The notes beneath the pieces were generated by a model. It did no database searches and was not told the DNA's origin. It saw only the letters and a list, made by a program, of their open reading frames with translations. A program made the translations under genes and the position numbers. A stretch of 62,057 nt of DNA, filler included, from Dugesia japonica (taxonomy: Eukaryota), in the NCBI GenBank assembly GCA_001938525.1. It is 6 parts of 6 records of this genome, joined end to end, with 100 filler letters (N's around TTAATTAATTAA, not from the genome) between each part and the next. Parts side by side here need not be neighbours in the genome. Positions count along the whole stretch, not along the records: positions 42,746 to 52,302 come from MQRL01265772.1; 5 more parts are not named here. One strand, 5' to 3'. Below are positions 47,873 through 50,800 of this stretch, one piece after another (position 1 is the stretch's first letter; the number at the start of each line of letters is the position of its first letter).

Positions 47873-50800
47873 TTATCTAACAGGACATGGAGTGGTTTGA
47901 TTTATTAAATCTAATCTCAAATGCCATATTTCATCTTCTGGTTTTGTACATTTTTCACATATACATTGATTACCATGTGGCCATGTTCTAGTTGCATTGT
48001 CTTCTATTATTCTTTTGTCAGAATAGCCTGTTAATGCTATTTTCTTTTGAGATGTTAATTTAATAACATGAAGTTCAGATTTTAAAGAATAATTTGTTCC
48101 ATAGATTATTTTCTTTCTATCTTTTAATATTGAATCAAAATCTGACATGCCAATTGGATTAAAACTTTGAACACCTTTATGTTTTTTAGTTAAACTGTGT
48201 TTGTCTTGTGTTTGATATTCATATGCATAAGATTTTGGTTTTATGAATACACATTTTAAAATTTCAGAATTTGGTAATTCATCTTTCATTTGAAAAAGAT
48301 TATCACCAGTTAATGAATTTAGAATTTCAAGATTATCATTTCCAAGGATCTCTAAGAATACGGAATCCGTATTTTTTATTATCAACGGAAATCCGCAGTT
48401 GAATGTTCCATCTTGGGTTTCAATGTCGTATACATCTTCAAGACTTTCTCTTAGGAATCTTATAGATTGGACATTAATTGGAATTTCAGTGTCGCATTCT
48501 TCTAGTTTAAAGTCACCTGTAATAATTAAATTTAATCCTAGGGATGTTCCTAGATAATAAGATTTTGCAAGTGACATTTTATCTTTAATTGTTTTATTTA
48601 ATATTACATTTCTTAGTTTATTATTTAAAGATATTATTGGTTTAAATTTATTGTGTAATAATTTTGTATTTAATGTTAGATCTGTTGGTTTAATTTCTTT
48701 ACCGGTGGAATCTAATAATGAATGGTCTTCTGTGACATCGACAATTCCTAATTTAGTTGTTATTCTATAAATTTTTTTATTAGTTTTATGTTTAATTACT
48801 TTTTTCAATGGAACCCAGTTACTTTTAGTCCAAATTTCAAAGTTTTCTGGATAAGAATAAAATTTAGAATCGTACATGTTCTTTGTATAATTTTGGTTTA
48901 TTTGTCCGGAGGCCAGCGTAGCGATCTCTGAAATCTTTTTAATAAATACTTTATTATCTATTTTTAAGATCACTGGCGTGTCAGATGTAACAGAATCAGA
49001 ATAATGAATTTTATAATTATCTTGTCCTATTTTCGGTTCTAATTGGTTATATACAAAATTATACATTACTTCTTTTGCATATTCTAGGATAGTGAAACCT
49101 AGATATGGAAATTTATTATAATTTAGTTTTGTTTTTGTCATGTGAACTGCTGCAATTTTAGACATTATTCCTGGTTCTGTTTTGAAAGTTTTAGAACTTA
49201 AATATGTTGGTTTGGCTACAAGATTTTGAAAATCTTCATCAGTTCCTACAATATGTACATTGCAACGGTTTCGAATATTTTCTAGGGTTTTGCCATAGAA
49301 AGAATTATTCATATCTTTAAAGAAAGATACACCGAATTCAACTTTATTTCGTTTTGCTAATGTTCTTTGCGTGATATTAAAATCAATATAATCTTTTAAC
49401 CATGTAGTTGTTGGTAATAAATATTTAGAATGAATCTTTATTAATTTCATTCCTAGTTGGAGATATAGATCTAGGGTAGAACCTAGGATTATATAATTCT
49501 TTTTGTTGAATTGGTTCATTGTAAGTTTAATATTATCTTTTGTTAGATTTAATTTAAATGATTTTTGGTAGTTGCTTAACATGTCTTCTGTTATAAGTAA
49601 TCTCTCAGGTGCTAATGGAAAATATTTTGTGCGATCATGGATTTCGCGAGGATACTCAAGATCAACTTCATAGAGATAATTCATAGTTTCACTTGAAGGT
49701 TCATATGTTAACTCGTTACATTCTATAAATTCACCTGTTGGAAGTGGTTTTGTCATGCAAGATGCGTATAAAGAATTTGCATCTAGATATTTAATATGTC
49801 TATCTTGCATTATATTATCAACATTAATTTCTTGTCCTGATTTCATCATTTCTATGAGATCTTCAAAATCTGCTTGATTTAATTCTCTTGTATACGGATT
49901 TTTATTGTTATCATGACTGAAGACTTGTCGTTCACCTTCTTCTCCAGAATAGCCACCACGTACTCCACGTTCAAATTTTAGGAATGTGTTATAAGTATTT
50001 GCTTTTGCAAATTTAAGTTTAACTTGTGTGAATCGCATTCCAGCTTGCCATGTTAAACCTGATGCAGTATAACAGTAACATGGATCTATTTTATAAAAGT
50101 CGAGACATATTTTTCTAAAGTTTTCTACGTAATCTGCTAGGATAAAGACATCTAGTTTCATATAATATAGCATGTAATTCCAGAGATTTTTTAATTTTAG
50201 AATATCATTTAAGAATTCTTCATATTCGTTATCGCTGATTCCTTTTTGTCTTAATTTAGAAAAGAAATCTTGTTTATCTGGTATTTTCTTGGATTTTAAT
50301 AATTTAGTAATTTCTTCTGGATTGTTTCCTTTTATATAATCATATGGAAATGAGACTTTTTTAGGTTTTAGTTTGTAAAAATCTAGTATTTCATGGTTTC
50401 CTGATTTAGAGAGTGTTTCACCCATTTTCTCGACGGATGTTTTACATATTTTAAATGAATCTAGGAATCTAATATAACCATAATTAAATGCAATATATTC
50501 ATCATCAGAATGTGGAATTATATTTTTTACTTTTTCTGGTTTATTACATATAAGTTGTCTGAAGAATAAATGATTGTCGTATCCCATTGCATTATGAAAA
50601 TATAATGGGATAAATAAATTTTGTGGTTTACATTCTTTGTGAATATAACCTTGAGATTCTTGAGTTAAATAATTATAATCGAAAACTGGATCTTTTAAGA
50701 TTGACTTTTCACAATAATAACATTTTGAGTTTTGGATGAACACTGGTAGATTTCCTGTGTATGCTTTTTCTAAATTATTAATTGTAATATTAATGTTATC

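Follow-up and report, generated by a model that had tools for sequence, protein, structure and literature searches.

A Pol-c mini-intein in the protein-primed DNA polymerase of a Polinton-type element from Dugesia japonica and its probable ancestry in giant viruses

A stretch of Dugesia japonica DNA (62,057 nucleotides, filler included, referred to here as the window) carries an intein inside the protein-primed DNA polymerase B (pPolB) gene of a Polinton-type element; its presence is confirmed and lies far above chance. It is a mini-intein that is predicted to splice, and its history was probably the following: the family likely entered pPolBs once from the RNA-primed PolB of a giant virus, likely homed between Polintons, and then lost the endonuclease in the copy studied here. 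We infer a single entry, homing as the route, and a donor that belongs to, or is close to, the group containing Mimiviridae sp. ChoanoV1. The intein is a known allele in a host class for which no report was found, and it is accompanied there by mobile sister alleles that form a family with it.

The intein is an in-frame insert of 624 nt (208 aa) at positions 48994-48371 on the minus strand, corresponding to residues 1035-1242 of the pPolB ORF. It was assigned as a Ser1/Thr+1 Pol-c mini-intein (48371..48994) from sequence, alignments, a profile match and a fold model, and it is located in polymerase motif C (YSD|TDS), where it follows the Asp of YSD and precedes the Thr of TDS, the same YxD|TDS point by which the Pol-c site is defined in the available text of Ogata et al. 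(PMC549080). In a preliminary description the range 48440..48994 had been given; its high end was correct, but its low end fell 69 nt (23 codons) short of 48371 and so did not take in the quoted end VYDIET...LIIKN (48433-48371). All intein motifs quoted there were recovered in the sequence. The residues expected for splicing are S1, K68-H69 (NX motif), T88/H91 (block B), D190 (block F), K207-N208 (block G) and Thr+1, with S1, H69, T88 and H91 identical throughout the 69 aligned inteins and D190 and N208 kept in all 66 aligned inteins that reach those positions. The NX motif was assigned by position and pattern after PMC10189870, in the available part of which the NX His following Arg or Lys is described as required for splicing of Ser1 inteins. 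The penultimate His, frequent in class 1 Ser1 inteins but dispensable, is absent and Lys207 is found instead; a Lys before the terminal Asn occurs in 154 of 203 complete Pol-c inteins and is usual for this allele.

The TIGR01445 profile (intein_Nterm) was matched with 35.3 bits against a cut-off of 24.5, Pfam PF14890 with E=1.7e-4, a match that stays below the cut-off of that family, and 1652 proteins were matched in the intein search at E<=1e-3. The AlphaFold model of the intein, generated from a 38-row alignment, had a pLDDT of 92 and resembled the solved inteins 9hth_B (Z 17.5, rmsd 2.6, 150 aligned) and 2cw8 (Z 17.1, rmsd 3.1, 201 aligned), while the top viral fold matches were PolBs of nucleocytoviruses, namely Pithovirus LCPAC302, Megavirus courdo11, Marseillevirus LCMAC201 and HaV01. 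Self-splicing by the class 1 oxyester route, involving Ser1, NX His69, block B His91, Asn208 and Thr+1, is predicted from these residues, and the polymerase is predicted to need it because the insert separates the two Asp of motif C. The intein is a candidate for a compact, cysteine-independent (Ser1/Thr+1) mini-intein, the likely residence of which is an animal genome.

The host gene is an ORF of 1462 codons from stop to stop (47873..52261, minus strand), which was recognised as pPolB by its motifs and by 2420 relatives and which is open on both sides of the intein; it comprises 1407 codons from the first TTG, no in-frame ATG lies upstream, and the true start is uncertain. N-terminal zinc fingers, the exonuclease motifs DFE and HNAMGYD and the palm motifs DANSLY, KDMNNSFYGK and YSD|TDS were identified. 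Many of the 2420 relatives from the extein search carry PF03175 or PF02945, and the best 120 of them are Polinton-type pPolBs with 31-42% identity, two of them under names from a clam and a spider; the extein is a Polinton pPolB, as had been proposed. The window polymerase itself gave no PF03175 match in the Pfam scan. The gene is located on a 9.6-kb contig (42746-52302, between gap linkers) together with five ORFs on the same strand. Three of these, encoding 189 aa (47266..47835), 460 aa (45924..47306) and 594 aa with short repeats (42923..44707), are ORF calls with no significant family match. The ORF of 240 aa (45174..45896) likely encodes a minor capsid protein; it showed Atlas feature matches of 0.98 in clusters rich in Preplasmiviricota, with a recognition score just below the bar, and its role is assumed by us from Polinton gene sets. 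The product of 145 aa (44700..45137) is likely an adenain-type protease, with a weak Peptidase_C5 match (E=0.082) and with H-W, FDSFG and Q..CG motifs that we read in this sense. No major capsid gene was recognised on the pPolB contig. On the next contig, separated from the pPolB contig by a scaffold gap, are the tail of what we take, by its motifs, to be a Polinton-type packaging ATPase (52449..52679, plus strand; no Pfam match) and a Polinton-type integrase pseudogene with several in-frame stops (53181..54250, plus strand; rve E=0.004); a dispersed repeat that is likely an LTR retroelement comes after it. An apparent terminal inverted repeat, a 108-nt inverted pair near 42.6 and 52.3 kb, was rejected as the 100-nt gap linker, five copies of which are present in the window; the true ends of the element, where terminal inverted repeats and a target-site duplication would lie, are not visible.

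No LAGLIDADG motif and no LAGLIDADG Pfam match were found in the window intein, in agreement with the preliminary description. It is 142 residues shorter than the 350-aa intein of the pPolB cluster P0022, and about 140 aa are gone in comparison with full-length relatives. A remnant of the endonuclease region of about 55 aa (48479..48643, minus strand) was delimited by alignment to pPolB inteins of 337-354 aa and by the model, in which it is predicted to form two helices and two strands. Kept from this region are the helix preceding the first LAGLIDADG motif and the last block, where IKDKMSLAKSYYLGTSLGLNLII (48589-48521) aligns with the last conserved endonuclease-region block of full-length relatives; the likeness of the short linker to that block had already been pointed out. 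Loss of the endonuclease is common: of the 65 inteins whose block G ending has 11 residues, 16 have a length of <=260 aa. It is shared with the giant-virus Pol-c mini-inteins, among which P0023 keeps a similar last block, but the hosts of these are RNA-primed PolBs, whereas the loss in the window intein arose inside the pPolB clade. As a separate observation, the insert that resembles endonuclease VII in related pPolBs no longer has its His residues in the window polymerase (residues ~459-490; about 50630-50725, minus strand), so that this polymerase carries two eroded nucleases.

The same intein was identified at the same site in nine further clusters of pPolBs, with sequences from ENA and JGI (P0003-P0006, P0022, P0026, P0043, P0292 and P0300), which were drawn from the intein searches (19 matches listed; 120 of 385; 150 of 1652) and from the extein search. 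These sister polymerases were called protein-primed from sequence alone, P0003, P0004 and P0006 being fragments that were assigned by the flanking motif only. None of the best 150 of 1652 intein matches matched a pPolB extein query, and the remaining intein matches were nearly all RNA-primed PolBs, with a few other-site inteins. Endonuclease-bearing sister alleles of about 350 aa had been predicted in the preliminary description and do exist: all five complete pPolB sister inteins have 337-354 aa, two LAGLIDADG motifs and a LAGLIDADG_3 match above cut-off, and the first LAGLIDADG motif was seen in P0003, P0005 and P0398, the last being a cluster-mate of P0004. The closest complete intein is that of P0022, with 56% identity over 200 aligned residues. 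The N-extein of P0022 gave no BLAST match to that of the window and represents a different pPolB class. The viral contigs with P0026 and P0292 were scanned for gene context and nothing was found. A pattern spanning the pPolB flank and the intein start was matched at two viral and seven metagenome loci, of which only L042 is real; there, a Polinton-type pPolB fragment (595-681, minus strand) carries no more than the N-terminal 28 residues of an intein of the Pol-c type. These residues agree without gaps with giant-virus inteins at up to 16 of 28 positions and with the pPolB clade at 6-9 of 28, the latter being partly an effect of register, and L042 may represent a second, separate entry into pPolBs or a chimeric contig of 1.4 kb.

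Phylogenies were used to place the pPolB inteins among their relatives. In a FastTree analysis of all 224 usable inteins, restricted to the splicing parts, the 10 pPolB rows grouped together (82) inside a clade of 70 rows (95), the other 60 rows of which were inteins of RNA-primed PolBs. A picked subset of 69 rows, consisting of 41 of those 60 RNA-primed rows, 19 others and 9 pPolB rows, gave one pPolB clade (100/100) that was joined with one giant-virus subgroup (99/95). This set was enlarged by several viral loci and by the Pol-c inteins of archaea (21 rows), and 22 mostly redundant rows, including one long branch, were dropped, which gave a tree of 92 rows and 173 columns rooted on the archaeal inteins; here the pPolB clade (9 of 92 rows) was supported with 98/96 and its union with the subgroup with 96/97, nested among giant-virus-type inteins. 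P0022 was sister to the window intein in the 69-row tree (82/97) and in a further 55-row tree (98/99 under LG, 90 under C20), and this pair was not resolved in the 92-row tree. The giant-virus subgroup, which we infer to be Imitervirales, contains ChoanoV1 and GVMAG contigs, with 52 of 56 exteins in one group with ChoanoV1 (support 84). ChoanoV1 (P0083) is the closest named viral relative in the trees, the rows of which did not include Mimivirus itself; the earlier designation as a mimivirus-type PolB intein is right for the giant-virus Pol-c family and not for Mimivirus specifically, as the closest viral group is the ChoanoV1-containing clade. An 11-residue block G ending was observed in all six complete pPolB inteins, in 59 of 197 other Pol-c inteins and in none of 17 other-site inteins. 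Viral contigs matching this ending all hold an RNA-primed PolB (15 of 15, 13 of them named GVMAG), and the pattern had no match in prokaryote genomes. Trees, fold and searches together place the intein in the nucleocytovirus Pol-c family and apart from phage, archaeal and other-site inteins, as had been claimed. A phage origin was rejected, 50,697 phage records having given a single weak match (E=2e-4, 30% cover), and a prokaryote origin likewise, the archaeal ones among 43 loci forming the outgroup and six top ones having giant-virus-type ends.

A transfer from giant virus to Polinton is the favoured direction, although the statistical tests do not settle it. In the 55-row tree, in which 343 columns including those of the endonuclease were analysed in LG and C20 mixture runs, the archaeal root fell beside the pPolB inteins in both runs, and the pPolB inteins (7 of 55 rows) formed one clade in 43% of the bootstrap trees under LG and with a support of 88 under C20. 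Such a root would fit a pPolB intein lineage as old as the giant-virus Pol-c inteins, dating from a stem-virus split or an early passage through Polintons. A topology in which the pPolB inteins branch outside every giant-virus-type intein was not rejected (p-AU 0.35), also after longer and unequal searches in which that for the favoured tree was unfinished (p-AU 0.10, 32 lnL worse), and a clade of pPolB inteins as sister to the giant-virus subgroup fits as well as a nested one. We nevertheless consider so great an age unlikely, since the pPolB inteins are nested in the 92-row tree, which is that of the splicing domains, their union with the subgroup has a RELL support of 0.90, and long branches are drawn to a distant outgroup; moreover, the 11-residue block G looks derived, because the first-branching viral intein (L030) and the Asgard/DPANN-type archaeal inteins have 12 residues. 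The archaeal and giant-virus relatives all reside in RNA-primed PolBs, so that the pPolB state is derived by parsimony, and the move from RNA-primed to protein-primed PolB, which rests on this parsimony, holds firmly provided that the pPolB inteins form a single clade. As for the exact donor, a virus within or close to the ChoanoV1-containing group is likely but unproven.

The intein is distributed in a scattered manner among its hosts. In an extein tree of 39 rows (kept from 124), six changes in intein presence are needed and the five exteins nearest to that of the window are empty; exteins 80-82% identical differ in intein presence, and 2 of the 120 best extein matches (of 2420) carry the intein. 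An intein ancestral to the pPolB class of the window, with many losses and no homing between Polintons, would agree with the finding that the five intein-bearing exteins of this class all fall in one starred clade of 16 rows. However, 11 of these 16 rows lack the intein, with P0311 confirmed empty, one of the closest inteins is carried by P0022 of an unalignable class, and the endonuclease is intact in 5 of 5 complete alleles, which is hard to maintain without the homing cycle; we therefore regard ancestral presence followed by losses as quite improbable. The histories of intein and extein are incongruent, as had been expected for a transfer, both in the scattered presence and in the close intein of P0022 beside its unalignable N-extein.

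A further account, in which a giant virus passed the intein straight to the window element or a close ancestor during co-infection, has also been considered. Giant-virus inteins are 44-47% identical to the window intein and have the block G ending in common with it, but the three closest inteins (57%, 56% and 48% identity) are all located in pPolBs, and four of five trees unite the pPolB inteins in a single clade. Furthermore, the GC3 of the intein (0.20) showed no marked contrast to that of the extein (0.16 and 0.13) in a purely descriptive comparison, and no giant-virus gene was found among 20 scanned of 54 listed window ORFs. A jump of this kind is very improbable and already largely refuted. 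From the earlier proposal of homing from a giant virus into a pPolB, the ancient entry is retained as the favoured course of events and the direct entry into this element is not; the intein of the window element would most likely have come from another Polinton, because the nearest inteins sit in other pPolBs. At the insertion site, 18 bp show 5-7 mismatches to three subgroup viruses, a target distance of the kind judged too large for direct homing in the available text of Ogata et al. (PMC549080). No co-conversion of flanks from a donor was seen, the C-extein resembling empty relatives. An assembly artefact or a dead, non-splicing insert is scarcely credible: the gene does lie on a 9.6-kb contig between scaffold gaps, but the insertion at motif C is codon-exact with the frame open on both sides, all catalytic residues are kept, and the insertion recurs in the nine further pPolB clusters, which come from ENA and JGI.

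In the favoured history of entry from a giant virus and spread among Polintons, an endonuclease-bearing giant-virus Pol-c intein would have cut or recombined into motif C, the one stretch common to all PolBs, of a Polinton-like element. The intein would have homed from Polinton to Polinton, crossing pPolB classes at least once, and an in-frame deletion in the lineage of the window element would have removed the endonuclease and produced a mini-intein, which may persist because only precise loss restores motif C. Homing requires that donor DNA, endonuclease and target meet within a single compartment, and an intein common to RNA-primed and protein-primed PolBs thus records physical contact of giant viruses and Polintons, just as the shared intein records later contact between very different Polintons. 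First contact may have taken place through a giant-virus-dependent PLV such as Gezel-14T, described as the only giant-virus parasite of this kind in culture in the available part of PMC12220804, or alternatively through a giant virus endogenised in a nucleus, a route that is possible because intein-bearing viral PolBs sit on nuclear scaffolds according to the accessible text of PMC10710043. The virophage-like lifestyle suggested in the preliminary description cannot be inferred for this element and could apply at most to an ancestor, and the nuclear route may have been taken instead. The finding bears on how many Polintons behave like PLV Gezel-14T, and the full-length alleles make the question of contact testable, their endonucleases being assayable on both kinds of target. 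Tentatively, and with considerable doubt, the data may be extended to an active homing-intein lineage of Polintons that passed from a ChoanoV1/mesomimivirus-like giant virus to a Polinton-like virus that shared its replication compartment, jumped across unalignable pPolB classes and reached an animal genome. If true, the intein would serve as a genetic tracer of cell-sharing among Polintons and giant viruses, and L042 would suggest a recurrent route.

With the Mimivirus PolB intein (Pol-c allele), as described in the available text of PMC549080, the window intein shares the YxD|TDS site, Ser1, the terminal Asn, Thr+1 and the block B Thr/His; it differs in its host, a Polinton protein-primed PolB, in having no endonuclease and in its length of 208 versus 351 aa. 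HNH and VSR nuclease inserts are known in Polinton pPolBs from the accessible parts of Jeong et al. 2023 (PMC10748475) and Krupovic et al. 2024 (PMC11071308), the latter suggesting that pPolB nuclease inserts stem from intein invasions. A mobile-looking nuclease domain inside a pPolB is common to these inserts and the present family, but they have been described there as nuclease domains, whereas the pPolB family reported here is a Hint intein with LAGLIDADG in the active site; the word intein is absent from the text and supplement of Jeong et al. in their accessible form. Nucleocytoviruses as intein donors in eukaryotes are a feature shared with the report of Gallot-Lavallee et al. 2023 (PMC10710043), in the available text and supplements of which Polintons, Mavericks and protein-primed polymerases do not appear. 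Eukaryotic-virus inteins have been catalogued in four nucleocytovirus families and unclassified viruses by Green et al. (PMC5784728), where Polinton is absent from the available text and supplements and three DNA-polymerase inteins are listed among the unclassified viruses, and the accessible part of PMC13768754 contains nothing further on Hint inteins in pPolBs. No publication describing a Hint intein within a pPolB was found in a search for which subscription journals and bioRxiv supplements were mostly out of reach.

Several related loci were recorded in the course of the searches. L049 and L051 (match at 3001) are contigs of one uncultured archaeon and one Promethearchaeota MAG with giant-virus-type Pol-c inteins, their PolB exteins are unlike that of ChoanoV1, and a virus-to-archaeon intein transfer is possible. 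L047, L048, L050 and L052 are bacterial-MAG contigs with giant-virus-type PolB inteins; in three of them the exteins are like that of ChoanoV1, and these contigs probably come from viruses and were mis-binned. Members of the Pol-c intein family were also observed at DQD|TDG or DSD|TDG (P0238, P0241, P0250, P0265, P0271, P0166 and P0188), presumably the type II topoisomerase motif; these sites mimic D|TDS and would mark the move of the intein into a similar-looking target in a different gene.

Elsewhere in the window, a fragment at 785-1348 (minus strand) resembles the N-terminus of a double jelly-roll major capsid protein, has a low Atlas recognition score and is likely a second Polinton remnant. 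Dispersed-repeat copies with ~80-85% identity, likely the 5' region of an LTR retroelement, are located at 38314-39455 and 54239-55369, and the latter truncates the Polinton integrase. A proteasome beta-7 coding segment with best scores to animal proteins was identified at 18581-19072 (plus strand); with the many retroelements of the window, it makes an animal host likely. Positions 20713-20982 (minus strand) hold what we take to be a decayed copy of ribosomal protein S21. The window is also rich in retroelements according to the Pfam scan.
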